Source of the DNA: Gammaproteobacteria bacterium
Lineage (GTDB): Bacteria > Pseudomonadota > Gammaproteobacteria > GCA-001735895
Direction: 5' to 3'
NCBI GenBank assembly: GCA_050298595.1
Contig: JBNKUM010000113.1
Coordinates: 1 to 27,974, forward strand
Length of the DNA stretch: 27,974 nt
Under the pieces are notes generated by a model that searched no databases, was not told the origin of the DNA, and was given only the letters and a program-made list of their open reading frames with translations. How positions within the stretch are numbered: the stretch's first letter is position 1; every line of letters starts with the position of its first letter. Both the position numbers and the translations under genes were made by a program. Positions 4,548 through 27,210 of this stretch are shown one piece after another.

Positions 4548-6068
4548 ATGTTAAATTTACACAAAATCAAAACTACAGGACTTGCTCTGTTAGCGGCTTC
4601 GATAAGCGTACTGAGTGCCTGTGCTACAAGTGATCCAGGCCCCTACAGTTCACAGCCCAGTCCAGTCGTAGCAACAGCAACTGGAGAAAACTATTCTACC
4701 CTGCGCGAAAATCAGCTACTCAGGGTAAACAATGAGCCCGTTAGTACATTCAGTATTGATGTAGATACAGCCGCCTATGCCAATGTACGCAGGTTTATCA
4801 ACAATGGCTACCTGCCACCGCAAGACGCCGTGCGTATTGAAGAGATGATCAATTATTTCGACTACGACTATCCGGCAGCAGAGTCAGCGGATGAACCGTT
4901 TCGTATTATTTCTGAGATCGCCCCTACACCCTGGAATAGTGGTAGTTATCTGTTACATATCGGCATCAAGGGCTACCAGCCGCCACAGACTGAACAGCCT
5001 GCGCGCAATCTGGTATTTCTGCTGGACGTTTCTGGTTCTATGGATGCGCCAAACAAACTGGAGTTACTCAAAAAGTCACTACGCCTGCTGGTCAACCAGC
5101 TCAGCATGCGTGACCGAGTAGCGATTGTGGTGTATGCAGGAACCTCCGGAATTGTATTACCTTCTACACCTGGTAACCAGCGTCGCGAAATTATTCTGGC
5201 TCTGGAAAATCTGAGTGCTGGTGGTTCTACCAACGGTGGTGCTGGTATTGAGCTGGCTTATTCAATCGCTCAGCAAAACTATATCAAGGGTGGGATTAAC
5301 CGAGTGATCCTCGCGACTGATGGTGATTTCAATGTTGGTTCTTCAAATACAGATGAGTTAACACAGCTGATCAAACAGAAAAAACGTTCCGGAGTTGCAC
5401 TGACTGTGCTTGGCCTGGGTATGGGTGACTATAATGATCAGATGCTGGAAGAGATATCCAATGCAGGAGATGGGAATGCTGCGTATATAGATACGTTACA
5501 GGAAGCACAAAAGGTTCTGGTGCAGGACCTTGGCAGCACATTACAGACGATTGCACGTGATACCAGGATTCAGCTTGAATTTAATCCTGAAAAGGTGAGT
5601 AGTTATCGCTTAATCGGTTATGAAAACCGCATGCTCCACACAGAAGATTTCAAAAATGATCGCGTCGATGCTGGTGATGTTGGTGCTGGCCATACGGTCA
5701 CTGCACTGTATGAAATCACATTAAAAGATAGGCTACGTTACCAGGCAGCGCAAACTGTACAGAATATATTTAATAACGAACTCGCCTACCTGAAGCTGCG
5801 CTATAAAAAACCGAATGAGAGTAACAGTCGTGAAATTGTGCATGCCCTGTCTGCGCAGGATGTACAAATAAATCTGTCAGCAACTTCGGATAACTTCCGA
5901 TTTTCAGCAGCTGTTGCAGCGTTTGGCCAGCTACTAAGAAGCGGCGACCAGGTGGGGGACTTTTCTTTGACTGAGGTTGAGACTCTGGCCCAGCAAAGTC
6001 GTGGCGTCGACAGATTTGGTTATCGCAGTGAATTTGTAAAGCTGGTTCGCCTGGCAGAATCGCTATAG
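4548..6068 (+). CDS. YfbK-like von Willebrand factor A domain lipoprotein (DUF3520-type C-terminus)
   Basis: AGGAG RBS; lipobox VLSA|C; STFSIDVDTAAY and RIEEMINYF motifs; MIDAS DVSGSM; LATDGDFNVG; YRLIGYENR. Confidence 0.92.
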   Translation: MLNLHKIKTTGLALLAASISVLSACATSDPGPYSSQPSPVVATATGENYSTLRENQLLRVNNEPVSTFSIDVDTAAYANVRRFINNGYLPPQDAVRIEEMINYFDYDYPAAESADEPFRIISEIAPTPWNSGSYLLHIGIKGYQPPQTEQPARNLVFLLDVSGSMDAPNKLELLKKSLRLLVNQLSMRDRVAIVVYAGTSGIVLPSTPGNQRREIILALENLSAGGSTNGGAGIELAYSIAQQNYIKGGINRVILATDGDFNVGSSNTDELTQLIKQKKRSGVALTVLGLGMGDYNDQMLEEISNAGDGNAAYIDTLQEAQKVLVQDLGSTLQTIARDTRIQLEFNPEKVSSYRLIGYENRMLHTEDFKNDRVDAGDVGAGHTVTALYEITLKDRLRYQAAQTVQNIFNNELAYLKLRYKKPNESNSREIVHALSAQDVQINLSATSDNFRFSAAVAAFGQLLRSGDQVGDFSLTEVETLAQQSRGVDRFGYRSEFVKLVRLAESL

Positions 6069-6423
6069 CCATACATATAAAAGGGTTTAAGACACCACTG
6101 ATGTGTGTATATTGTCTCTGGCACACAGGCTGATGCGCACAGCGTCGGGTGGGGGTGAAAATCCTGGAAATCAACTGAAAGCCACCGGTTTCAGAGTTAT
6201 TTCAGTCTGTACAGTGAATTTTGTGCAAAAAAATTGTGCAAAAAAAGAGCTGGAACTCCGGAATTTTTTTATTTGTTTGTGTTTTAATTAGTGGCTGCCA
6301 TGTCTATAGATGGCTTTTTGTGAAGATGAATCGGTAAAAGAGTCCGTTTTCCAGACTCGAGATCTTATATTTCCGGAGCCGGGGAATTCAACACTTGGTA
6401 CAATTTTTCGTTGTGTTCATAAA

Positions 6424-7470
6424 ATGATTACTCTTGGATTACTTGGGTTTGATGCGGCATTGGTCAAATCCTTATCGATAGCCCTTAGCAGTCGGGCAGC
6501 AAAAGTCTGTCAGTATGTCGAGCCGGAAGCGGCTTCGGTGGTGTTGGTTGATATTGATAATCTGCAGGATCAAAATGCCTGGAAACAGTTAAAAGATGCA
6601 TGCTCATCAATATTTATAGCCGCTTCTCAAAACCTCACACTACCGGCGGGATATGAACAGGACTTTGTTTCAGTTATTGCTAAGCCAATACGTTTTACAG
6701 CGATGCTTGCGTCGGTAAAAGCTGCTGTAGCCAGTGGGCAGGAGTCAGCCCAATCTCTAAATAACACCTCGATGGTCGCGGATTTGATCGATAGCGGGCG
6801 GATGCGCCGTAATTCTGAGGTGCTGCGTAGCCAGGCAGAGATTGATCCAGATAACTTCCTGTTAGGGTTTGTGCTGAATTCAGTGCAACTCAATTCAGCT
6901 GATCATTACCGTTATATCTGTCTTGATGAAGGTCATCCCCGTAATGATGGGCAATGGTTAGTGATCGATAAACGATTGGGCAGAGTTTATCTCAGTATCA
7001 ATGCGAAGGTGATTAGCCATACTGCAATTATGGATTTTTCACAGCATGGGGTCATTGAGCAGTGGATTAATTCCAGTCAGCTGGCTGAGCTTAAATCCAG
7101 AGCTGTGCAGAATATTCCCGTTGAAGAGTTTATCTGGGTATTGACCAGGGACACGGTTCGTAATGCACGCCTTATGAACTTTGATACTGAAAAGCGTTAT
7201 CGGCTTAAATGCTGGCCGAACTTAACCTGTTACGCCACTGGTAATCAGGATGTTGCAATAGCCAGTTTCTGGGCTGAAAGTAATGCCAGTGCGGTTGAAC
7301 TGGCTACTAGCCTGGGTATGACGCTTAATGACGTCCTGCCTTTTGCTACTTGTTGTTTTACCTGTGGTTTGCTCGAGCCAGTTGATAAACCTGTGGCGAT
7401 GACCACCCGTAAACCGAAAACAGGCTTTAACAAGGTGTTATCTATGATTTTGAAAAAACTGGAAAGTTGA
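6424..7470 (+). CDS. Receiver-like domain protein with C-terminal PATAN/DUF4388-like and winged-helix region (partner of MglA-like GTPase)
   Basis: REC-like VVLVDID and IAKP; C-terminal RLKCWPNLT and ASAVELATSLGMTLNDV..GLLE; terminal amphipathic helix. ATG 6424 is preferred over 6310 on domain start only. Confidence 0.65.
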   Translation: MITLGLLGFDAALVKSLSIALSSRAAKVCQYVEPEAASVVLVDIDNLQDQNAWKQLKDACSSIFIAASQNLTLPAGYEQDFVSVIAKPIRFTAMLASVKAAVASGQESAQSLNNTSMVADLIDSGRMRRNSEVLRSQAEIDPDNFLLGFVLNSVQLNSADHYRYICLDEGHPRNDGQWLVIDKRLGRVYLSINAKVISHTAIMDFSQHGVIEQWINSSQLAELKSRAVQNIPVEEFIWVLTRDTVRNARLMNFDTEKRYRLKCWPNLTCYATGNQDVAIASFWAESNASAVELATSLGMTLNDVLPFATCCFTCGLLEPVDKPVAMTTRKPKTGFNKVLSMILKKLES

Positions 7471-7473
7471 GCT

Positions 7474-8013
7474 ATGCGCAAGGGTAATTTAAAAATAGTT
7501 TTCGCCGGTTCTATTGGTGCAGGTAAAACGACAGCTATTCAGTCGGTTAGTGATGTTGAAGTGGTACATACTGAGGAAATGGCCACCGATGATGTGAAGC
7601 AGATGAAGGAAACAACCACCGTTGCCATGGACTACGGCCAGATGATTCTCGAAGACAAAACCCTGTTGCATTTGTACGGAGCGCCAGGGCAGGGGCGGTT
7701 TGATTTTATGTGGGAGATACTGTCGCTTGGTGCACTGGGGGTGATCGTTCTGATTGATGCGGCAAGTTCTGATCCGTTTGCCCAGATTGATGCCTATATG
7801 ACAGGTTTTGAGCAACAGCTACGAGAGCGAACTATGGTCATTGGTCTTTCGCGTACTGACCTTAATGAACAGTTCCAACTGGATGAATATCGCAGTTATA
7901 TCTGTCGATATGATCAAAGTATCCCTCTGCTCACTGTCGATACCCGTCAGCAGCAGCAAGTTAGAGTTCTGGTGAGAGTTCTGTTACACCGAATAGATCC
8001 CTGGTTGGTGTAG
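7474..8013 (+). CDS. MglA-like (conservon CvnD-type) small Ras-like GTPase
   Basis: G1 GSIGAGKTT, switch I TTVAMDYG, G3 YGAPGQGRFDFMW, G4-like SRTD, G5-like VDTR. Confidence 0.9.
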   Translation: MRKGNLKIVFAGSIGAGKTTAIQSVSDVEVVHTEEMATDDVKQMKETTTVAMDYGQMILEDKTLLHLYGAPGQGRFDFMWEILSLGALGVIVLIDAASSDPFAQIDAYMTGFEQQLRERTMVIGLSRTDLNEQFQLDEYRSYICRYDQSIPLLTVDTRQQQQVRVLVRVLLHRIDPWLV

Positions 8014-9327
8014 ATGATGTATTCTTCAGAGATTAATTTACTATCGCTAAGAGATTTTGGTGTTAATTTCGGAAAGCGTAAAATTCTCACCGGGATTAAT
8101 CTGGATATAGGCGATAAGGGGATTACCCATTTGCTAGGGCCCTGCGGAGCCGGAAAATCTACTTTGCTCAGGTCCCTGGCCGGCCTTAACGATTTGTCTT
8201 CTATGTACCAGCCGCAGGGTACAGTGTTTTACAAGGGTGAGGCTCTGGGTACTCTTGATCGTCCCTTGATGATGGAGCAAAAACCTTCCGGGCTGTTGAA
8301 TAATATATTTAACAGTATTTTAACTCTTCTGCCAGAAAGGGGCTCGCTGAGCGCCCGTCAACAAATTGATCTGGTCGATCGTCTGTTGCGACAATATGGT
8401 TTGTCTCACTTAGTCAATAGCTTGAGTACGCCATTAACCCAGTTATCGCTAGCTGATCGACGCAGTGTTCTTATACTGGGGCTAGTGGTCACCGCACCGG
8501 AAATGATTATGCTGGATGAGCCGACTGCTAATATGCCAGAGGATGATGCCAGGGTGGTGCTTGATTTGATCAGACTTGTGGCCGAATTGCGCTCTGTCTT
8601 GCTGGTTCAGCACAATCAGGAATATGTCAAATATCTGGGCGGCAACGCGATATTGATTGCCGGGGGGACGATTCAGGAAGAGGCTACAGCGCAAAAATTA
8701 CTGACAGAACCCGTTTCCGCAGCCGGACAGGAATTCGCGGGAAGTGGTACCTGTGCCGCACCTAGTCCGGATACTGACCCTGAAATGCTGGACGAGGCCT
8801 TTGTCGCAAGGTACAAACCGGTCGTTCGTGAACTGGAGAAACAACCCAGAATTATACCATTTGGTCCGCAAGGTTTTCGTTGGGTAGAGCGTGAAAAGCT
8901 CGCGGCCACACCCAGGCCGGGTATAGGGGGAGATATGGAATATGATTTAAAGGCGCTTGCCAGAGTCAAAATTGATTATCTGGTGTCACTCGAGGAAATT
9001 ATGCCGCTGCAAGAGGCTGACACTGCTGAATATAATATATCACTGTACCATTTACCAACGGTTGATATGGGCGTACCTGAGATGGATGAAACGCTGACAT
9101 TAAATCGTGCGATGCATCAATGGCTGAAGCAGGGCAAGCGAGTTGCTGTGCATTGTAAGGCCGGTCTCGGTCGTACCGGTACCATGTTGGCGGCTTATTA
9201 TATTTTAAAGGGCATGAGTGCTGCGGATGCCATGCAGAAACTTCGTCTTGTGAATCCGCGCATGATTCAATCTGGTGAGCAGGAAAAGTTTCTGTTCGAT
9301 TATTCCGATTATATTGCTGCAATTTAA
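8014..9327 (+). CDS. ABC-type ATPase domain fused to a dual-specificity/CDC14-like Cys phosphatase
   Basis: Walker A GPCGAGKS, Q-loop, degenerate signature LSLAD, Walker B IMLDEP, H-loop VQHN; C-terminal PTVDMGVP loop and HCKAGLGRTG (9151-9180). Confidence 0.88.
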   Translation: MMYSSEINLLSLRDFGVNFGKRKILTGINLDIGDKGITHLLGPCGAGKSTLLRSLAGLNDLSSMYQPQGTVFYKGEALGTLDRPLMMEQKPSGLLNNIFNSILTLLPERGSLSARQQIDLVDRLLRQYGLSHLVNSLSTPLTQLSLADRRSVLILGLVVTAPEMIMLDEPTANMPEDDARVVLDLIRLVAELRSVLLVQHNQEYVKYLGGNAILIAGGTIQEEATAQKLLTEPVSAAGQEFAGSGTCAAPSPDTDPEMLDEAFVARYKPVVRELEKQPRIIPFGPQGFRWVEREKLAATPRPGIGGDMEYDLKALARVKIDYLVSLEEIMPLQEADTAEYNISLYHLPTVDMGVPEMDETLTLNRAMHQWLKQGKRVAVHCKAGLGRTGTMLAAYYILKGMSAADAMQKLRLVNPRMIQSGEQEKFLFDYSDYIAAI

Positions 9328-9521
9328 AAAAGGAAGTCAAGTGATTTATTTATCTATAAATACAGTGACCGTTCATGCAAAAAAACAAAATATAGATGAA
9401 AAAAATTTTTTTTTGTATTCTATAATTACTGATTCGTTTCTGTGTAAAGTTTTCTTCTACTTTGAAGTTAATTTTACTCAGCCGGATATCACCCAATATT
9501 TTAGTAACCAGGAGTCCTAGA

Positions 9522-9923
9522 ATGTCTTTAGATGTAGAAGTACAAAATTCAATTGCCACTATCCCTGAATGTATTGCTGCCGGTTATGTCGATGTCGGCA
9601 CCGGTATGCTGTTAAGTATAAAATCTGTCGACTCTCATCCCGGAGAAGTGATGGATCTGTTAGCGGCCGCAACCGGTGATCTCTTTCAGGGGCCTAATGT
9701 CGTAGCTATTGAAGATATCTTTAAAAAGGCTCGTGGTTCAAATGATCAGGGTCATTACTTTCAGGAAATGGTTGTGCTCAGTGATAATCTTGTGCATGTT
9801 TTTCTACGGGGAAAGACTTACACTGAACATGTTGTAGTATTTGTTTGCCGTAAATCAGTCAATCTGGGAATGGCATTAACCAAGGCTAGAATGGCTGCGC
9901 CTAAACTGGAAGCTGCACTTTAA
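9522..9923 (+). CDS. Divergent roadblock/LC7-like protein, paralog 1
   Basis: ATG after an AGGAG RBS (9510-9514); 133 aa; helix/strand pattern fits a roadblock fold; clear paralog of 10215-10649. Confidence 0.7.
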   Translation: MSLDVEVQNSIATIPECIAAGYVDVGTGMLLSIKSVDSHPGEVMDLLAAATGDLFQGPNVVAIEDIFKKARGSNDQGHYFQEMVVLSDNLVHVFLRGKTYTEHVVVFVCRKSVNLGMALTKARMAAPKLEAAL

Positions 9924-10214
9924 TCTCCTGGGCTGTCATTTCGCGTGGCTTGCCATGTGAGAATAAGGATGTTTCTATGGGAGTCTTAAGATTCCCGTGA
10001 AACTCCTAAGACACCTCTTATCAATATGATGTATCTGTGGCACATAGTTTAATGCGCAATCAGGTCACAGCTTGGCGCACACGCGTCTGCCTGGGAAGAA
10101 GTTGTAATGATTAGCACAGAGACATTACATACAGATCAGAGAAGTCCTAAGCAAATATCCCGTCCGCTTGCGAGGGGGGATGTATAGCTTTAAATGGGTT
10201 GAAAAAACGTTCCT

Positions 10215-10649
10215 ATGTCATTAAAAAGTCAGTTGTATAAGTCGATAAGAGGAATGCCTCTATGTATTGCAGGCGGGTATATCGATCTTGACAATAAAAT
10301 ACTGCTAGATATGTTGACGAGAGGGCCAGAGTCCAAGGAGATGCTGCCGCGACTGGTTGGTATCACAGAGGATTTATTTCAGGGTTCGAATGTAAAGATG
10401 ATTGAACAGATTTTTAATAAATCTCGAGGCGTACAAGATCGTGGCCGACATTTATTTCAGGAAATGGTGGTTATGAATGAGGATTTGATTCACGTTTTTA
10501 TTCGCGGAAAAACATTTAATAATCATATTGTCACCTTTATTTTTGAAGGTAAGATGAATATGGGGTTGTCACTGTCAAAATCACGTAAAGAAATACCCTT
10601 GCTGGAAGATGAAGTGGCATTATTGCGTATGCAAAATCGAAAACTTTAG
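10215..10649 (+). CDS. Divergent roadblock/LC7-like protein, paralog 2
   Basis: Shares CIAxGYxD, DLFQGxNV, IExIFxKxRG, FQEMVV and HVFxRGKT with 9522-9923. Confidence 0.7.
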   Translation: MSLKSQLYKSIRGMPLCIAGGYIDLDNKILLDMLTRGPESKEMLPRLVGITEDLFQGSNVKMIEQIFNKSRGVQDRGRHLFQEMVVMNEDLIHVFIRGKTFNNHIVTFIFEGKMNMGLSLSKSRKEIPLLEDEVALLRMQNRKL

Positions 10650-10670
10650 AATTATTGAGATTTAGCTAAA

Positions 10671-11039
10671 GTGGCGTATAAACTAAATGTAATCAATAAA
10701 ATACTGGGTGATTTTGTCATTAGTTCTTCCAGTATTCAGGCTGCCGCAGTGATGACTCGTGACGGTCACCTTATCGCTTCTAATCTAGATGCTGGTGTGG
10801 ATGGTGATCGCTTAAGTGCTATTTCAGCTTCGCTATTATCGCTAGCTGATCGGGCCACTCAGGATGTACAACAGGGTATTTTGAAACAGGTGCTTATCGC
10901 TAATAGTGATGGCTTTATCCTCATGCTCAAAGTAGGCGAAAACGCCGTACTTTCAGTAGTTTCAGAAGCTAGTTCCAGCCTGGGCATGTTATTGCACGAG
11001 GCAAATAAATCCGCCGCCATTCTGGCTCATTTAATTTAA
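10671..11039 (+). CDS. Roadblock/LC7 (MglB-like) protein
   Basis: 122 aa with AAAVMTRDGHLIAS, DRLSAISASLLSLA, GILKQVLI...GFILM and SLGMLL, the classic roadblock signature. GTG start. Confidence 0.88.
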   Translation: MAYKLNVINKILGDFVISSSSIQAAAVMTRDGHLIASNLDAGVDGDRLSAISASLLSLADRATQDVQQGILKQVLIANSDGFILMLKVGENAVLSVVSEASSSLGMLLHEANKSAAILAHLI

Positions 11040-11063
11040 GCACAGATTGCTTTGCTACTGCAT

Positions 11064-12620
11064 ATGACAACAATCTATTTTGAAAATGATTCTTTCGAAT
11101 GCCGTGATAATGAATCGGTTCTGGATGCATTACTCAGACAGGGCAGGGAGATTCCTTTTTCATGTCGCAATGGAGTCTGCCACGCCTGCCTGATGCGTGT
11201 GGTCGAAGGCGCTCCTGGAGAGTCTGCACAGAAAGGATTATCTCAAGGTTTATTGCAGAAAAATTATTTTCTGCCCTGCCGTTGCCGTCCGGATAAAGAT
11301 TTGACTATTGCGTTACCGCGTTCTGCAGATCTAAGTTGCCTGGCAATTGTACAGGGAAAGCAACAACTGAATGATCAGGTCTGGCGTTTTGAGATAGAGC
11401 CCTCGGTTGAATTGTTTTATCACGCTGGCCAGTTTATTAGTATCAAAAATCCGCAAGGCGTAGTGCGTAGTTATTCAATCGCCAGTGTGCCGCAGCAGGA
11501 TTATTTTCTTGAACTGCATATTAATCGTCATGATCAAGGGCAAATGAGTCGATGGTTGATTGATGAGGTTGAAGTGGGAGATGAAATTCAAATAATCCGC
11601 CCAGAGGGCAATAATTTTTACCAGGCTGGGCAACAAACACCTTTGTTGCTGGCAGGTACTGGAACGGGTTTGGCTCCATTAATCGGTATTGCGAGAGACG
11701 CCCTGTATTCCGGGCATCAGGCAGCGGTTCATCTTTATCATGGAGCTGTTGATAAGCATGGGCTTTATTTACAGGAAAGTTTACGCAGTCTGGAACAGAC
11801 GTTTGAGACTTTCCATTTCCATCCCTGCGTTATTAATGAGCAAAGTATTCAACAGGCGATTTCAGCACAGCATGTTTCACTATCTGGCTGGCAAATTTAT
11901 ATTGCAGGAAATCCACTGCTGGTAACCTCAGTAGCTGAGCAGGCGCAGCAACTGGGCGCTGACGAATCAGCAATTTTTAAAGATCCTTTTACCCTCAGTG
12001 AAATCACTGGAACAGATGACTACACTGATGTTAGCGAACAAAATAATCGTCAGCCTCAGGAGATGGCTTATCCGCCCCCGGATACTGAACTCTGGCAAGC
12101 TCTGGGTGAGGGTGAAATACTTAAAAGGATTCTCGATGATTTTTACGATGCAGTATTTGAGGACCCGGTAATGTCTCCGTACTTTCATAACTCGACCAAG
12201 ACTCGAGCGAAAGAAAAGGTTTACTCATTTTATCGACGTTTATTTTCCGGGGAGCGAGTTTATTTCGGTGACAGGCCGCGCAATGCACACCACTGGATGG
12301 TGATTAGCGATGAGGTGTTTAACTATCGCGAAATCTTGCTCAAAAGCTTTATGCAGAAACATGGATTAAACGATGCAATGATCACTCGTTGGCAGGTTCT
12401 TGAAGAATTGTATCGTCCTGATATTGTAAAAACCAGGGCGAGGGGACGCATGGTCGGCGATATCGAAACTCCGGCAGAAGGTTACGGCAAGATCACATTA
12501 AGTGTTGCCGGTATGTGCGATGCATGCCATGAAGAAATTGATACGGGAACAGAAGTGGTTTATCACTTGCGCACAGGTGAGCTATTCTGTGCGAATTGTT
12601 CGGCCAGCAGACACTGTTGA
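11064..12620 (+). CDS. Multidomain oxidoreductase: [2Fe-2S] ferredoxin, FAD/NAD(P)H FNR module, group I truncated globin and CxxC...CxxC ribbon
   Basis: CRNGVCHAC..C; RSYSIAS, GQMS and GTGLAP; globin LWQALG..DDFYDAV..PYF..RNAHHW; terminal CDAC (12516) and CANC (12588). Confidence 0.82.
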   Translation: MTTIYFENDSFECRDNESVLDALLRQGREIPFSCRNGVCHACLMRVVEGAPGESAQKGLSQGLLQKNYFLPCRCRPDKDLTIALPRSADLSCLAIVQGKQQLNDQVWRFEIEPSVELFYHAGQFISIKNPQGVVRSYSIASVPQQDYFLELHINRHDQGQMSRWLIDEVEVGDEIQIIRPEGNNFYQAGQQTPLLLAGTGTGLAPLIGIARDALYSGHQAAVHLYHGAVDKHGLYLQESLRSLEQTFETFHFHPCVINEQSIQQAISAQHVSLSGWQIYIAGNPLLVTSVAEQAQQLGADESAIFKDPFTLSEITGTDDYTDVSEQNNRQPQEMAYPPPDTELWQALGEGEILKRILDDFYDAVFEDPVMSPYFHNSTKTRAKEKVYSFYRRLFSGERVYFGDRPRNAHHWMVISDEVFNYREILLKSFMQKHGLNDAMITRWQVLEELYRPDIVKTRARGRMVGDIETPAEGYGKITLSVAGMCDACHEEIDTGTEVVYHLRTGELFCANCSASRHC

Positions 12621-20922: not shown

Positions 20923-22104
20923 AAATAAGTATATTTAGTAAACTGCTATTGTAATTTCGTCACTGCAATTTGTGATTTCAGGTAGCAAACCTCGACAATA
21001 CCAGGGTGTTCTCAGCAAGGCGTATCCATTTTAAGTAAAGACAGAATATGCGCCTTAAATAAGGAATGATAATCGTATAAATTCAAATACCGAATGCTGT
21101 TGGATGAATTATCACGCAGAAAATTCCCTGAAAATGTTGTTAAATATGTCACTAAATGTTTACGTTAGCATGGCTTTATGGGGTGATTATTGAGCAGAGT
21201 TTTATAGTATTTAGCAGTCATTTATCGCTCTGTGTTAGCAAGATAGAAAAAAAGGGGGCTGAGCTAATGTGATGCGCGATTTAAGGCTTTATTTCTGGTG
21301 AATCTGAAATGTTTGGCAGTTATGCAAAGCGCGATTTGACATGTCTTAAAACCACTGGTCTACAGACAAATTTCAGCCTTTCTTCGATTTCTGATAATAG
21401 AAGTCAGTCTGAATCTCCTCCGAAAATGTTTATTGAAAAATCTGATTTTAAGGGTGACCGGCGTGAATAGGGTCGCTTAAGATTTGTGTGAAAAGTCTCA
21501 AAATAATTTCTAGTTATCAAGTAATCAGGTGTTTTTCATCAAAAATATCATTGATATTTTAAATGTTGAACATTTGATTATTGAATTCAATGTAAAGCGC
21601 TAACTGCTCTGAATATGGACTTTAAACGCGTTTTTTTTGGCATAAAAAATAGTCTCAGGCCAATAGATTATTAATAGTGCTGGCTCTGTATTTAAAGGGG
21701 GCGGTGTGAGATGCGCGTGTTTAAAAACAACAATTAGAGTATATGTTTGCCATGAGTTGATGGGCATAAAAACAACCCGGGTAAATATATAGTTAACGAG
21801 GGAGTAAAAGGGGGCGGAGAGAAATAGGTGAGTTTATTTTATCAGGCATGATCTTATCGGCGTGAATATTCATATAAATATCCAGACTTGAATTAAAGGG
21901 TGGAGTGGATATACTTCCAAAAAAGTTGCATTTGACAACTTATTTAGAGGGGCGGAAATAGCCGATTTCACTCTGGTTTATGCAGGCATGCCAGCTAAAC
22001 GGATGAATGATGCATTGATGATGGCAAATAGATATTTCTATAGCCACGATCCTGCCATGTTTGTTTCATGTGAAAAAATAATGAGACCTAAAGAGGGGCA
22101 CACC

Positions 22105-25104: not shown

Positions 25105-27210
25105 ATGGATATCCCAGGATATAAATTAGGCCGAGAGTTTGCCGATGGAGAGTATTGCAGAGTTTTCAATGCACTGGACCTGAGCAATCATAAAACCGTT
25201 AATATACAGGTATTTGATTCCTCTCTTATCGCAAATCCGGCATTTTCAACCCAGTTCAGAAATGTCACCAGTAAACTGGTGGGCACCAGTTTTGGAATCA
25301 TGGCACCGTTTCTTCAGGCTGAGATATCAAACCAGGCCTGTTACGTGGTTTCTCAATACTTTCCCAATTCTCAGCAATTATCCGCTACCCCGCCAACTTT
25401 GACCAGACGTCAGATTCTGAAATTTGCTCTACAACTGGCGAAAACCCTTGACCAGCTACATTTAGCAGGCCTAGTTCATGGCGGTATTGAATACAGCTCC
25501 CTCTACTTTAAGGCTCCCGATCAGTTAATGTTAAAGCCTGTGATCCTGCAGAGATTAATACCGACGCTACGACCAATAACCTTCAAGTCGCTGGATCAGT
25601 CGCAAAAACGATACCTGGCCCCTGAAGCTAGTAAAGGTCTGACACCGGCAACTGATTTTTATGCACTTGGCGTACTGCTATATCAACTGATTTTTGGCTC
25701 TCTCCCCGTAGAGAAGACAGACGCCAGGCTGTTCCAGGAATGGCCATCCACAGGTGATATTAAGGACTTGAAAGTTTTTTTTATAAAACTGCTCGCCCAC
25801 GATCCTGGTCAAAGGATCCAGAGTCTTAATCAATTCACCGAGGCGCTAGAGCAATGTGGTATCGACTTACTCAAATTGGCACCCACCGTTTCTAAAACCA
25901 CAGCTGTCCAATACGACAGAGCTAATCATAACAAAACTGCTTCTCGCTCATTTTCGAAGTGGATGGTTCTCACTGCCAGTTTGGCTGTGATCGCTCTGAC
26001 TGGCACACTCATTTTGTTGCCATCTCATGAGGAAGCACAACAACAACCGGTCCTTGAGGAAGCACAACAACAGTCAGCTCTTGATGAAGAAGCACAGCAA
26101 CAGTCAATTTTTGACGAAGCAAAGCAACAGCGAGAGCTGGAGGATGCATCAGAGGTGGCGGCCTCTGCTGACACAACGAACGTAGAAAAAAAAACGGTTG
26201 AACAGCCCTCCGCCGACACCTTTACGAAAATAGAGATGACCGAGGCTGAGCCCTCTGTCGAAAACCTGTACCAACAAGCTTTGACCCAAGTGGAGACGAA
26301 CCCTGAAGCCGCATTGCAGATCGTAAATGATTTACTAGAACAAAAACCTGCCGATATCGCGTCATTAAAACTGAAGCAACAGATTGAAAAGGAGTTAGAG
26401 ATACGCTCGCTAATCAATACGGCAGAGCAGCAATTGAAAGAACTAAAACTGCTTGATCCCGATGGGGACAACGCCTATGAATCTTACCAGACGGTGGCTG
26501 GAATGCTATCCTCAGATGATGAGCGGGTACGTAGTGGATTCACTCATATTGCCGCCGCCTACCATGCCCTGGCCGAAAATCTATTTAAAGAAGAGCGTCT
26601 CGACAAGGCGCTGGAACGTGTTGAGCGGGGTCTATCCGTCAAGGACGATTATGCCCCGTTACTTAAGCTTCGCATTACTATCAATGAGAAAAAAAATGAG
26701 TTGCAGCGTAAATTAAAACTTGCAAAACTGGAGAAACAGCGCGAACAAGAAATACAAAAAATGCTGGAAAATCAGCAACGACGGGAGGAACAGCGACTTC
26801 GGATAAAGAAAGAGCAAGCGGCGTTAGAACGGAAGCGTCAGAAGGAAGAAAAAGCCAAAAGATTAGCACAACAAGTTAAAGAAAAAGAGTTAGAATCAAT
26901 TAAACAAAGTAAAGTCGATGCTTTGTTGAAATCGGCCAACGATCATCTCAAAACCGGTCGGCGAACGTTGAAAAAAGTATTTGCTGCTCACATCGACTAT
27001 GATGAGCTGCAAAAACTGAATTCCACAAGCCAGAGAGTTACCGAGTTAAAGGAGGCGCTTATCAATGCCTATATGTTACTTTCCGAAAGGCAATCTAATG
27101 ACAAACTCTATAAGTTAGCCATTCAAGCCATTAAGCAGGGCGTTCAAATGAGCCCTGAAGACAAAAAACAATTGCAGATCAGATCACAGCTCTCTTTTTC
27201 AACTTTTTGA
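25105..27210 (+). CDS. Membrane-anchored Ser/Thr kinase-like protein (probable pseudokinase) with TPR-like and coiled-coil C-terminus
   Basis: MDIPGYKL start, YLAPE, TDFYALGVLLYQLIFG and DPGQR retained; catalytic motifs degenerate; TM WMVLTASLAVIALTGTLILL; EQK-rich coiled coil. Confidence 0.8.
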   Translation: MDIPGYKLGREFADGEYCRVFNALDLSNHKTVNIQVFDSSLIANPAFSTQFRNVTSKLVGTSFGIMAPFLQAEISNQACYVVSQYFPNSQQLSATPPTLTRRQILKFALQLAKTLDQLHLAGLVHGGIEYSSLYFKAPDQLMLKPVILQRLIPTLRPITFKSLDQSQKRYLAPEASKGLTPATDFYALGVLLYQLIFGSLPVEKTDARLFQEWPSTGDIKDLKVFFIKLLAHDPGQRIQSLNQFTEALEQCGIDLLKLAPTVSKTTAVQYDRANHNKTASRSFSKWMVLTASLAVIALTGTLILLPSHEEAQQQPVLEEAQQQSALDEEAQQQSIFDEAKQQRELEDASEVAASADTTNVEKKTVEQPSADTFTKIEMTEAEPSVENLYQQALTQVETNPEAALQIVNDLLEQKPADIASLKLKQQIEKELEIRSLINTAEQQLKELKLLDPDGDNAYESYQTVAGMLSSDDERVRSGFTHIAAAYHALAENLFKEERLDKALERVERGLSVKDDYAPLLKLRITINEKKNELQRKLKLAKLEKQREQEIQKMLENQQRREEQRLRIKKEQAALERKRQKEEKAKRLAQQVKEKELESIKQSKVDALLKSANDHLKTGRRTLKKVFAAHIDYDELQKLNSTSQRVTELKEALINAYMLLSERQSNDKLYKLAIQAIKQGVQMSPEDKKQLQIRSQLSFSTF
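26029..26147 (+). repeat. Intragenic tandem repeat of 27-30 bp encoding EEAQQQxxL(D)
   Basis: EEAQQQPVL EEAQQQSALD EEAQQQSIF DEAKQQREL; DNA unit GAGGAAGCACAACAACA repeated with progressive decay. Confidence 0.85.

Follow-up and report, generated by a model that had tools for sequence, protein, structure and literature searches.

Seven co-oriented genes at 6424-12620

Positions 1-27,974 of contig JBNKUM010000113.1 of a gammaproteobacterial genome assembly (GCA_050298595.1), referred to as the window, carry seven co-oriented open reading frames (ORFs) that span positions 6424-12620 of the + strand, as seen in an ORF check of the window. Numbered g1 to g7 in their order of occurrence, they encode a receiver (REC)-like protein with a putative winged helix-turn-helix (wHTH) C-terminus, a small GTPase, an ABC-ATPase::phosphatase fusion, three roadblock-type proteins and a truncated haemoglobin (trHb) joined to a reductase. 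The cluster is a composite cytoplasmic signalling system of two conserved modules. Module A comprises g1, g2 and g6, with g1 likely acting as DNA-binding output, while module B comprises g3 and g4 (with g5 as a local duplicate of g4), is usually accompanied by g7 and also exists alone. An earlier note on this DNA had described six co-oriented genes, with gaps of 3 and 0 nt between the first three, and these are real at the coordinates it had given, except that g4 starts at 9522. Its gene identities were likewise correct, as seen for g2, g3 and g6 by Pfam, for the REC domain of g1 by fold, for g4 by structure and for g5 by paralogy, and its statement that the locus lacks a kinase agrees with Pfam scans, in which no protein kinase was detected in 6424-12620. 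The limits of the locus had been drawn too narrowly, leaving out the conserved seventh gene g7, which begins 12 nt past g6.

The fusion gene g3 (8014-9327; + strand; 437 amino acids (aa); 194 nt before g4) encodes a PstB-like soluble ABC ATPase domain (residues 1-245) followed by a DUSP23-like, Cys-based dual-specificity phosphatase (DSP) domain (residues 285-430) with the active site HCKAGLGRTG. Pfam matches were obtained to PF00005 (5.8e-15), PF22784 PTP-SAK (1.8e-16), PF22785 (1.2e-15) and DSPc (5.2e-11), and the phosphatase matches exceed their cut-offs (61 bits against 27 for PF22784; 42.9 against 33.5 for PF00782). In the PDB, the protein matches 25xa_A (9.1e-20) and DUSP23 (4e-14), and its phosphatase domain is closest to a solved "dual specificity phosphatase family protein", DUSP23 and SsoPTP. 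At least 95% of 65 distinct fusions keep Walker A, Q89 of the Q-loop, D168-E169-P170-T171 (Walker B and the catalytic Glu) and H200 of the H-loop in the ABC domain, as well as D351 (the general acid), H380-C381-x-A-G-x-G-R-T-G, Q419 and Q423 in the phosphatase domain. Both catalytic centres are therefore conserved and the enzymes appear intact. With atypical DSPs (DUSP23/VHZ, SsoPTP; PF22784 PTP-SAK), g3 shares the HCx5R(T) P-loop, the general-acid Asp and, judged by sequence, the small single-domain DSP fold; it differs in its fusion to an ABC ATPase and in having a roadblock-fold protein as partner. In the same way, Walker A, the Q-loop, Walker B and the H-loop are shared with ABC transporter ATPases, whereas the LSGGQ signature and adjacent permease or binding-protein genes are not.

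The linker between the ABC and phosphatase domains of g3 contains a cysteine, C247, within the pattern G-[ST]-C-x-x-P-S-P-D, which is kept in 57 of the 65 fusions. As pure speculation, C247 would be a candidate redox-control partner of the catalytic Cys. Cys-based phosphatases are classically redox-sensitive, which would fit a haem/redox theme.

Directly downstream lies g4 (9522-9923; + strand; 133 aa; 291 nt before g5). Its longest ORF opens with a TTG at 9462, while the ATG at 9522 is preceded by AGGAG and public gene calls give the 133-aa form. No Pfam match was found for g4, nor for g1 and g5, and the g4 sequence profile matched no solved-structure sequence significantly (best E 0.18). An hhalign comparison with the g6 family gave 82.5% probability over 52 C-terminal columns only. 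The fold became apparent from a structural model (30 sequences; pLDDT 87.6, pTM 0.81) with the roadblock topology a-b-b-a-b-b-b-a, for which Foldseek returned 3kye (E 1.4e-7; TM 0.72-0.79) and MglB (TM ~0.7). The model superposes on a Streptomyces Roadblock/LC7 protein, MglB, LAMTOR2 and Asgard roadblocks with TM ~0.65-0.8, and g4 is, as judged from this predicted structure, a roadblock-fold protein. Its family counts 1922 homologues, and the 120 listed are 64-100% identical, which makes it the best-conserved component of the cluster, as the fusions of the same distant loci are only 33-41% identical. A complex prediction for g3 with g4 scored 0.00 against a mark of 0.32 and weighs neither for nor against a contact between the two.

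The two following genes are of different kinds. A paralogue of g4, g5 (10215-10649; + strand; 144 aa; 21 nt before g6) is 44% identical to it and has retained each of the 15 columns that are invariant in the g4 family. Among genome loci the g4-g5 pair was found only in the window, L085 and L086, pointing to a duplication that the window shares with two genomes of the same genus, while independent tandem duplicates of g4 are present in the metagenome loci L141, L142 and L191. The next gene, g6 (10671-11039; + strand; 122 aa; 12 nt before g7), encodes a canonical Roadblock/LC7 protein of MglB/CvnB type (PF03259 Robl_LC7, 3.6e-11), and its family profile matches the solved Roadblocks 7f8m (1.3e-27), 9jue (1.9e-23), CvnB5 (3leq; 9.1e-15), LAMTOR2 (~1e-4) and MglB (2.6e-4). 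The three roadblock-type proteins, taken previously as one expanded set, are thus indeed three in number, but they consist of a canonical member (g6), a module-specific one (g4) and its genus-specific duplicate (g5). In many full clusters elsewhere (L146, L147, L152, L155, L166-L168, L172, L176, L178, L184) a second canonical Roadblock gene stands downstream of the globin gene, in contrast to the genus of the window, which has the g4 duplicate instead.

The last gene of the cluster, g7 (11052-12620; + strand; 522 aa), encodes in this order a ferredoxin domain of the 2Fe-2S type, FNR-like domains for FAD and NAD, a truncated haemoglobin resembling group 1 and, at the C-terminus, a CxxC...H...CxxC tail. 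The corresponding Pfam matches are Fer2 (2.3e-15), FAD_binding_6 (1.2e-10), NAD_binding_1 (2.4e-8) and Bac_globin (2.1e-7), the globin (PF01152) reaching 31.6 bits against a cut-off of 21. The globin aligns to THB1 (1.4e-6) and HbN, both group 1 truncated haemoglobins. Among 38 relatives, F364 and Y365 (positions B9-B10) are identical in all 38, H413 and H414 of the proximal His region in 38 and 37, and C489, C492, C513 and C516 of the tail in 38, 38, 37 and 37, respectively. With these features g7 has the hallmarks of a truncated (2-on-2) haemoglobin and is predicted to bind haem. As judged roughly from stop-to-stop ORFs, the 39 globins found in such clusters comprise about 20 long forms (reductase and globin), nine intermediate forms (Fer2 and globin) and ten globin-only forms; 19 of the 39 therefore lack the FNR part or both reductase parts and yet keep the globin and the Cys4 tail.

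At the 5' end of the cluster, g1 (6424-7470; + strand; 348 aa) precedes the GTPase gene by 3 nt. An in-frame ATG is also present upstream at 6310, but the start at 6424 is preferred because it is common to five of six close homologues in an alignment and because the predicted REC fold begins at residue 2. From the N- to the C-terminus, the protein is composed of a REC-like domain (residues 1-105), an alpha/beta domain that is also conserved (~140-250), a putative wHTH whose start is marked by the invariant motif W264-P265 (WPNL), and an amphipathic helix; no NCBIfam model matches it. In an AlphaFold2 model (14 sequences; mean pLDDT 78.8) the N-terminal domain takes the receiver fold, with a VIA Z-score of 10.6 and a root-mean-square deviation of 2.6 A over 103 residues against KdpE and ArlR, and Foldseek returned PmrA receiver domains (TM 0.57-0.66). 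Both fold searches returned receiver domains and their results cover the N-terminal domain only; the C-terminus is a putative wHTH, from its predicted helix-helix-helix-strand pattern and from a statement on the family based on Phyre2 in the accessible text of PMC4316618. The receiver domain could be phosphorylatable because its hallmark positions are largely kept among 60 family representatives (D10 in 48, D43 in 46, D45 in 52, S68 in 35 with T in a further 5, K87 in 53 and P88 in 60). The g1 family as a whole has 2274 representatives (50% identity) at E<=1e-3.

The GTPase g2 (7474-8013; + strand; 179 aa) abuts the fusion gene with 0 nt between them. It is an MglA/CvnD-type small GTPase in Pfam (PF03029, 4.1e-13; Ras, 1.2e-6), with MglA as its best solved relative (1.2e-3). 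Its motifs are G1 GxxGxGKT, G3 A-P-G-Q without Asp, G4 SRTD without Lys, and G5 DTR. These are features of the family in general: among 68 distinct members, PGQ of the G3 motif [TA]-P-G-Q is found in all 68, the G4 position is occupied by R in 50, H in 9 and Q in 5, and G5 has D in 68, A in 54 and R in 67.

Conservation and phylogeny of the two modules

The fusion and g4 are found together in almost every locus where both could be seen. Fourteen fusion-anchored genome loci were gathered, seven from a genome-contig scan (in which 7 of 80 returned loci were true fusions and the rest generic ABC patterns), three from a search of genus, family and class relatives, and four from a class sample. They contain g4 in 13 cases, the GTPase in 11 (in each immediately before the fusion), g1 in 10, a Roadblock gene in 10 and a g7 homologue in 11. 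As the contig of the fourteenth locus ends 353 nt past the fusion, g4 is present in 13 of 13 decidable cases. In the other direction, 80 metagenome loci anchored on g4 show the fusion in 64, lack it despite sufficient room in one (L217) and are undecidable in 15, which gives 64 of 65 decidable loci. Among 401 genomes of the class, g4 occurs in six and all six carry the fusion, namely five scored as fusion-positive and G257, in which fusion and g4 are adjacent with no other cluster part within 6-8 kb. The fusion count of 5 in 400 class genomes is a floor, since four candidates were scored per genome and G257 was missed in this way. The g3-g4 pairing is nearly obligate in both directions.

The larger cluster is also widely repeated. 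The order g1-GTPase-fusion-g4-Roadblock-g7 recurs in Moraxellaceae, Comamonadaceae, Gallionellaceae and Sphaerotilaceae, with fusions 33-41% identical to that of the window, as well as in further genomes of the class and on many metagenome contigs. The recurrence of this order in distant genomes and in metagenomes puts the arrangement far outside what chance would give. Closer to the window, the cluster is present in 4 of 14 genomes of the genus, and no match was found in 27 other family and class relatives searched. Among 19 well-flanked metagenome loci (at least 4 kb on both sides), 13 have the GTPase together with g1 and the other six have neither, while a Roadblock gene is present in 11 and a g7 homologue in 14. 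The fusion family comprises 1342 proteins at E<=1e-3 among 8000 candidates scored, from Gammaproteobacteria, Burkholderiales-type genera, Myxococcota and Planctomycetota.

These distributions bear on the relationship between the fusion and the GTPase. The earlier note had proposed a gene-neighbourhood survey seeded on the fusion, and in this survey roadblock-fold genes accompany the fusion in nearly every case, as does the GTPase in 11 of the 14 genome loci and 13 of the 19 well-flanked metagenome loci. The cluster could be seen as a conservon-like switch centred on the GTPase, in which the three roadblock proteins would be GTPase-activating proteins or guanine nucleotide exchange factors of a single GTPase, and the ABC::phosphatase would provide the output or reset in place of a histidine kinase. 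Several features speak for such a switch: g1, GTPase and fusion are tightly packed (3-nt and 0-nt gaps), the GTPase lies directly 5' of the fusion in 11 of the 14 genome loci, and the REC-like domain of g1 retains the Asp, Ser/Thr and Lys-Pro of phosphorylatable receivers. So do the coupling of a single MglA to two MglB clades in Group 3 MglA systems (PMC4316618) and the combination of a GTPase and a Roadblock with a phosphotransfer enzyme in conservons, as far as the accessible descriptions go.

Still, we regard a GTPase-centred switch as unlikely. Fusion and g4 occur without GTPase, g1 and Roadblock in 6 of the 19 well-flanked loci and in L002, L006, L007 and G257, including loci of Myxococcales and Acidobacteriota, and the genes flanking these stand-alone pairs are not conserved but vary by locus. 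In a tree of 66 fusions, a clade of 25 rows (SH-aLRT 100) contains no GTPase-linked row, and a clade of 27 rows (98) contains 26 that are GTPase-linked, so that the stand-alone pairs form a clade of their own; the branch of the window lineage is long. In the class, the GTPase family outnumbers the fusion roughly tenfold (60 of 400 genomes sampled against 6 of 401), and most such GTPases thus work without it. Many fusion-linked g1 proteins are without a REC domain, and to our knowledge Cys-based protein tyrosine phosphatases (PTPs) are not known to act on phospho-Asp. The fusion is therefore no mere accessory of the GTPase: its obligate partner is g4, and the pair is found without a GTPase in 6 of 19 loci, in Myxococcales and in Acidobacteriota.

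In a tree of the GTPases, the fusion-linked label needs seven changes, at least five of which are forced by well-supported branches. This tree of 78 rows (68 distinct sequences) mislabels L133, a generic double-ABC protein, as fusion-linked and L160, a short g4-linked contig, as generic, and it supports only that the label is clustered and does not form one clade. Taken together, our reading is that the ABC::PTP-roadblock unit, with or without trHb, would be the older and wider one and was joined to Group 3 MglA operons in beta- and gammaproteobacteria, with the direction and number of joining events left unsettled by trees that are both unrooted.

Group 3 MglA systems are almost confined to beta- and gammaproteobacteria (Wuichet & Sogaard-Andersen 2014, PMC4316618). 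According to the accessible text of this survey, they consist of a conserved protein whose function is unknown, with a REC-like N-terminus and, by Phyre2, a wHTH-like C-terminus, an MglA with DAR as its G5 and a G4 that lacks the Lys of [NT]KxD, and one or two MglB. The window has a GTPase with a Lys-less G4 and a DAR-type G5, an adjacent protein with a REC-like N-terminus, whose C-terminal wHTH is judged from predicted secondary structure, and coupled Roadblock/LC7 genes (g6 by Pfam, g4 by fold, g5 by paralogy). On the basis of these sequence features, module A (g1, g2, g6) fits the Group 3 MglA systems, which are known from a computational description and are uncharacterised; the assignment of the window GTPase to Group 3 rests on the published defining features, as the GTPase tree holds this family only. 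In gene set and taxonomic range module A equals the Group 3 systems described in PMC4316618 and the mgl locus of Snodgrassella (PMC11112851). The window differs in that the genes for the ABC::phosphatase and for the roadblock-fold protein belonging to it separate the GTPase gene from the MglB-like one, and in that the trHb fusion follows. A phosphatase is mentioned in the accessible text of neither paper, and a globin is not mentioned in that of PMC4316618.

Homologues of g1 stand upstream of the GTPase also in distant loci, including generic Group 3 loci without the fusion. Of 13 generic loci fetched (L127-L139), 11 hold a g1-like protein (335-465 aa), the GTPase and a Roadblock protein of ~120 aa, while in L138 the GTPase was the only module part detected. 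Most of those inspected add a protein of ~215 aa without Pfam match, in the order g1-like, GTPase, ~215-aa protein, Roadblock, and this second protein is absent in the window. A 316-aa protein at 7892-8842 of L139, with Robl_LC7 at residues 214-292, replaces both the ~215-aa protein and the 120-aa Roadblock and may be their fusion. In four generic operons tested, the gene adjoining the Roadblock gene encodes a Protoglobin in three (E 7e-26 to 1e-20) and a PAS domain in one. The Protoglobin-family proteins, in L128, L136 and L137, are 185-196 aa long, and the stand-alone PAS protein, in L127, has 156 aa. L127 also contains a PhnD-like 'Phosphonate-bd' protein downstream and a 249-aa protein with a weak TPR match upstream. 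The accessible text of the 2014 survey mentions no sensor globins in Group 3 operons (PMC4316618).

The kinship with MglA/MglB and conservon-type G-protein modules that had been proposed for the locus holds. Like the actinobacterial conservons (CvnA-D; mfp operon), it combines in an operon-like arrangement a CvnD-like GTPase (PF03029), a CvnB-like Roadblock (CvnB5 3leq, 9.1e-15) and a small helix-turn-helix-like partner. In contrast to the conservons, no CvnA-type histidine kinase is present, with no HATPase or HisKA match in the scanned ORFs of the window, g1 is without a match to DUF742 of the CvnC family, the locus has a phosphatase, an ABC domain and a globin in addition, and the phylum differs. 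Within the g1 family, DUF742 (PF05331) matches 1 of 60 members (1.4e-4), a faint hint of kinship between the C-terminal domain of g1 and CvnC. With Myxococcus MglA/MglB, the window shares a Ras-like GTPase that has no Asp in G3 and, as its putative regulator, a dimer of roadblock fold; g4 superposes on MglB and g6 matches it by profile. The similarity to MglA is weak (1.2e-3), G4 and G5 differ, no RomR/RomX, Frz or motility genes lie nearby, and nothing found here implies a role in polarity or motility. A conservon-like switch, as the earlier note had called it, was thus well seen with regard to kinship but not with regard to newness, because the G-protein part fits Group 3 MglA (PMC4316618).

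What appears to be new is the ABC::phosphatase-roadblock-trHb half and its union with a GTPase module, the G-protein half being known but uncharacterised. A literature search returned no publication in which an ABC::phosphatase is described together with roadblock, GTPase or trHb partners, nor any characterised system of this composition, in line with what had been claimed; the supplementary neighbourhood tables of PMC4316618 were outside this search and may list some of the genes. The search also found no biochemistry on Group 3 systems, and for mglB of Snodgrassella the accessible text reports only transposon-sequencing (Tn-seq) and colonisation data (PMC11112851).

A second GTPase of the source genome (G000:C12:32885-33415; 7883-8422 of L126) shares 73% identity with g2, and its surroundings contain neither g1 nor a roadblock or fusion gene. 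It is located 660 nt downstream of a Hanks Ser/Thr kinase that looks active (Pkinase 1e-54; with HRDLKP and DFG). Orthologues of this kinase (82-91% identical) occur in three genomes of the same genus that have the cluster, whereas of two genomes of the genus without the cluster one (G004) gave no match and the other (G013) a match of 34% identity only. The kinase was considered as a component of the system and rejected, as no GTPase adjoins it in the three relatives.

Possible input and output of the system

Gene content, folds, conserved catalytic centres and the association of g3 with g4 seen from either side are the observations on which a mechanism can be built; physical contacts, signal direction, ligand and substrate are what we infer from them. 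In our estimate the odds are about even that a haem-based gas or redox input acts through roadblock adaptors on an ATP-gated phosphatase and on a GTPase/wHTH output, a mechanism proposed on top of a composition that is itself observed. Within this scheme g7 is the most likely input. A haem or gas signal is the best guess because the globin is the third most constant partner of the g3-g4 pair, because F364-Y365 and H413/H414 are conserved, because differing small sensor domains (Protoglobin, PAS) recur at one position in generic operons, and because a natural fusion of a globin to Roadblock/LC7, HGbRL, exists (PMC4476040). HGbRL of Methylacidiphilum, which has been crystallised and proposed as a globin-coupled sensor, likewise couples a haem globin, as putative gas sensor, to a Roadblock/LC7 domain, in a genome that also has an MglA/MglB-like pair. 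According to the accessible text of that paper, it differs in being one polypeptide with a 3-on-3, HGbI-related globin, whereas in the window a 2-on-2 globin is part of a separate reductase protein and is linked to the roadblock genes by neighbourhood only.

The haem of g7 would report O2, nitric oxide (NO) or the redox state, with electrons supplied by the protein's own NAD(P)H-FAD-2Fe2S chain. The state of g7 would then be relayed to the roadblock-fold proteins, which, as dimeric platforms, may control the nucleotide state of P-loop NTPases in the way that roadblock proteins do for MglA and the Rag GTPases. Of these, g6 would act on the GTPase g2, and g4 or g5 on the ABC domain of g3. Binding or hydrolysis of ATP by this ABC domain may gate the phosphatase, which would dephosphorylate a phosphoprotein or a small molecule, while the GTPase g2 would control g1 and hence transcription.

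Alternatively, g7 could be a self-sufficient NO dioxygenase or peroxidase like flavohaemoglobin, with its neighbours regulating it or protecting the cell from nitrosative or oxidative stress; in a variant of this explanation, sensing could fall to the phosphatase, through its redox-sensitive catalytic Cys, with g7 as the effector enzyme. The complete NAD-FAD-2Fe2S-haem chain in one polypeptide, the long forms among the cluster globins (20 of 39) and, 6.4 kb downstream of g7, a gene for a di-haem cytochrome c peroxidase would be in line with it. As described in the accessible text of PMC3820574, trHbs commonly pair with FNR-type reductases for NO dioxygenation, and g7 likewise joins a haemoglobin to an NAD/FAD reductase of the FNR family. 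As trHbs are usually served by such reductases, g7 may both sense and consume NO, turning it over in the manner of trHb-reductase pairs. Flavohaemoglobin (Hmp) has an N-terminal 3-on-3 globin followed by FNR; in g7 this order is reversed (Fer2-FAD-NAD-globin), the globin is of the truncated type, a plant-type 2Fe-2S domain and a conserved Cys4 tail are added, and half of the cluster relatives are without the reductase. The model for NO-inducible flavohaemoprotein matches only the reductase residues 102-268 of g7 (1.7e-19; 70.1 bits against a cut-off of 432). The 19 of 39 cluster globins that keep the globin and the Cys4 tail without the FNR part or both reductase parts argue against an enzyme of this kind. 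A sensing role is favoured by the unrelated sensor-type Protoglobin and PAS proteins at the matching position of generic operons, and Pfam scans found no NO-responsive regulator of NsrR or NorR type in the window. On balance, an NO-detoxifying enzyme at the centre of the locus seems distinctly improbable.

On the output side, the phosphatase could be the toxic effector of a toxin or defence system, restrained by the NTPase and roadblock parts and released upon an invader or stress signal. Indications for this are the match of g3 to PF22785, 'Polymorphic toxin system, DSP-PTPase' (1.2e-15), along with that to PF22784, the name 'phosphatase domain-containing putative toxin' under which the family appears in databases and Atlas clusters, and the patchy distribution in 4 of 14 genus and 6 of 401 class genomes. 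Nevertheless, PADLOC run on the seven proteins gave only a generic ABC match for g3 (mad3, 1.3e-14) and nothing for the other six, and Pfam scans found no mobile-element genes in the cluster region and no secretion, trafficking or immunity genes in the window. Moreover, g4 is 64-100% identical among the homologues listed, the enzyme centres are uniformly conserved instead of diversifying, and the partners are signalling proteins (REC-like, wHTH, globin). A toxin or defence role is therefore judged very unlikely.

A further possibility is that the ABC domain provides the ATPase for a phosphate-type ABC transporter or for Pho signalling, with a phosphate-scavenging phosphatase and an incidental link to the GTPase. 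PstB (TIGR00972) is the nearest NCBIfam model to g3 (5.2e-27), PstB structures are also among its PDB matches, an Na/Pi cotransporter adjoins one stand-alone locus (L209), and a PhnD-like binding-protein gene occurs in generic Group 3 operons. The PstB match reaches only 94.8 bits, far under its cut-off of 343. No permease or substrate-binding gene is present in the window, none adjoins the fusion in the 14 genome loci and none is conserved beside it in other loci; the neighbours of stand-alone pairs vary by locus, LSGGQ is lost, and the conserved partner is a roadblock-fold protein. Such a function appears extremely improbable.

Several observations weigh against the proposal that haem input is relayed through roadblock adaptors to phosphatase and GTPase, and they affect its parts differently. 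With its full reductase chain, g7 could be a plain NO-detoxifying enzyme, and g7 is absent from 5 of the 19 well-flanked loci and 3 of the 14 genome loci, so that haem sensing cannot be the sole input. On the output side, the LSGGQ signature of the ABC domain is lost (LSLAD in the window; family consensus L-[PST]-x-x-x-Q-R without Gly-Gly), and a canonical ATP-sandwich dimer may therefore not form, while the database name of the fusion family evokes a toxin. The REC domain is absent from many of the fusion-linked g1 proteins, which are 124-255 aa long in L003, L005, L095, L087 and L004. Regarding the operon itself, promoter-like sites (14 against 13.4 in shuffled sequence) and terminator-like sites (8 against 6.8) are not in excess, and co-transcription across the 194-nt and 291-nt gaps is therefore no more than a possibility. 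Lastly, many of the metagenome loci counted above are near-copies of one another, and the hidden Markov models were partly trained on genome loci that they scored.

The proposal in its most specific form states that the trHb senses O2, NO or redox state, that a dedicated roadblock adaptor switches an ABC-gated Cys-phosphatase, and that in beta- and gammaproteobacteria this unit is plugged into a Ras-like G-protein/wHTH module, with dephosphorylation and transcription as outputs. In all these details together it is tentative and rather doubtful. Ras-like GTPases with roadblock partners are widespread in bacteria, but their inputs and outputs are known mainly for polarity in Myxococcus and for a few conservons of Streptomyces and Mycobacterium. 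The locus gives Group 3 systems testable handles in the form of a probable input, the haem protein, and a probable enzymatic output, the phosphatase. The ABC::PTP-roadblock module, with or without trHb, spans at least Pseudomonadota, Myxococcota, Acidobacteriota and Planctomycetota and has more than 1000 database members, labelled "putative toxin", none of which has been studied. If an ABC ATPase is indeed under the control of a roadblock-fold protein, the known partners of this ancient adaptor fold, which eukaryotes use in Ragulator and dynein, would extend beyond GTPases.

Flanking genes and other features of the window

The genes flanking the cluster encode a chemoreceptor, a Usp protein, a VWA/YfbK protein, a spermidine-synthase-like protein, sugar-catabolism proteins, an XylR-like regulator, the cytochrome c peroxidase and a GDSL lipase. 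The VWA/YfbK gene (4548-6068), upstream of g1, is syntenic in a genome of the same genus (G001, locus L085; E 1e-293) and lies outside the cluster in distant loci. An Rfam scan for RNAs in the spacers gave two tRNA matches only, both on the - strand at the start of the window, a complete tRNA gene (65-137) and a cut one (1-50), and a repeat search of 9300-10250 revealed nothing notable. Positions 21001-22000, just upstream of the GDSL-lipase gene, have a GC content of 0.363 against ~0.45 elsewhere and a GC skew of 0.229, and are without a long ORF.

At 25105-27210, 12.5 kb downstream of g7 and co-oriented with the cluster (+ strand), a gene encodes a protein of 701 aa whose N-terminal domain resembles protein kinases (Pkinase 3e-8; 33.8 bits, with the cut-off at 31.7). 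In the catalytic-loop region HGGIEY takes the place of HRD, and the protein may be a pseudokinase. The kinase-like domain is followed by a hydrophobic segment and a long Glu/Lys/Gln-rich, coiled-coil-like region, and the AT skew at 26001-27000 is 0.30.

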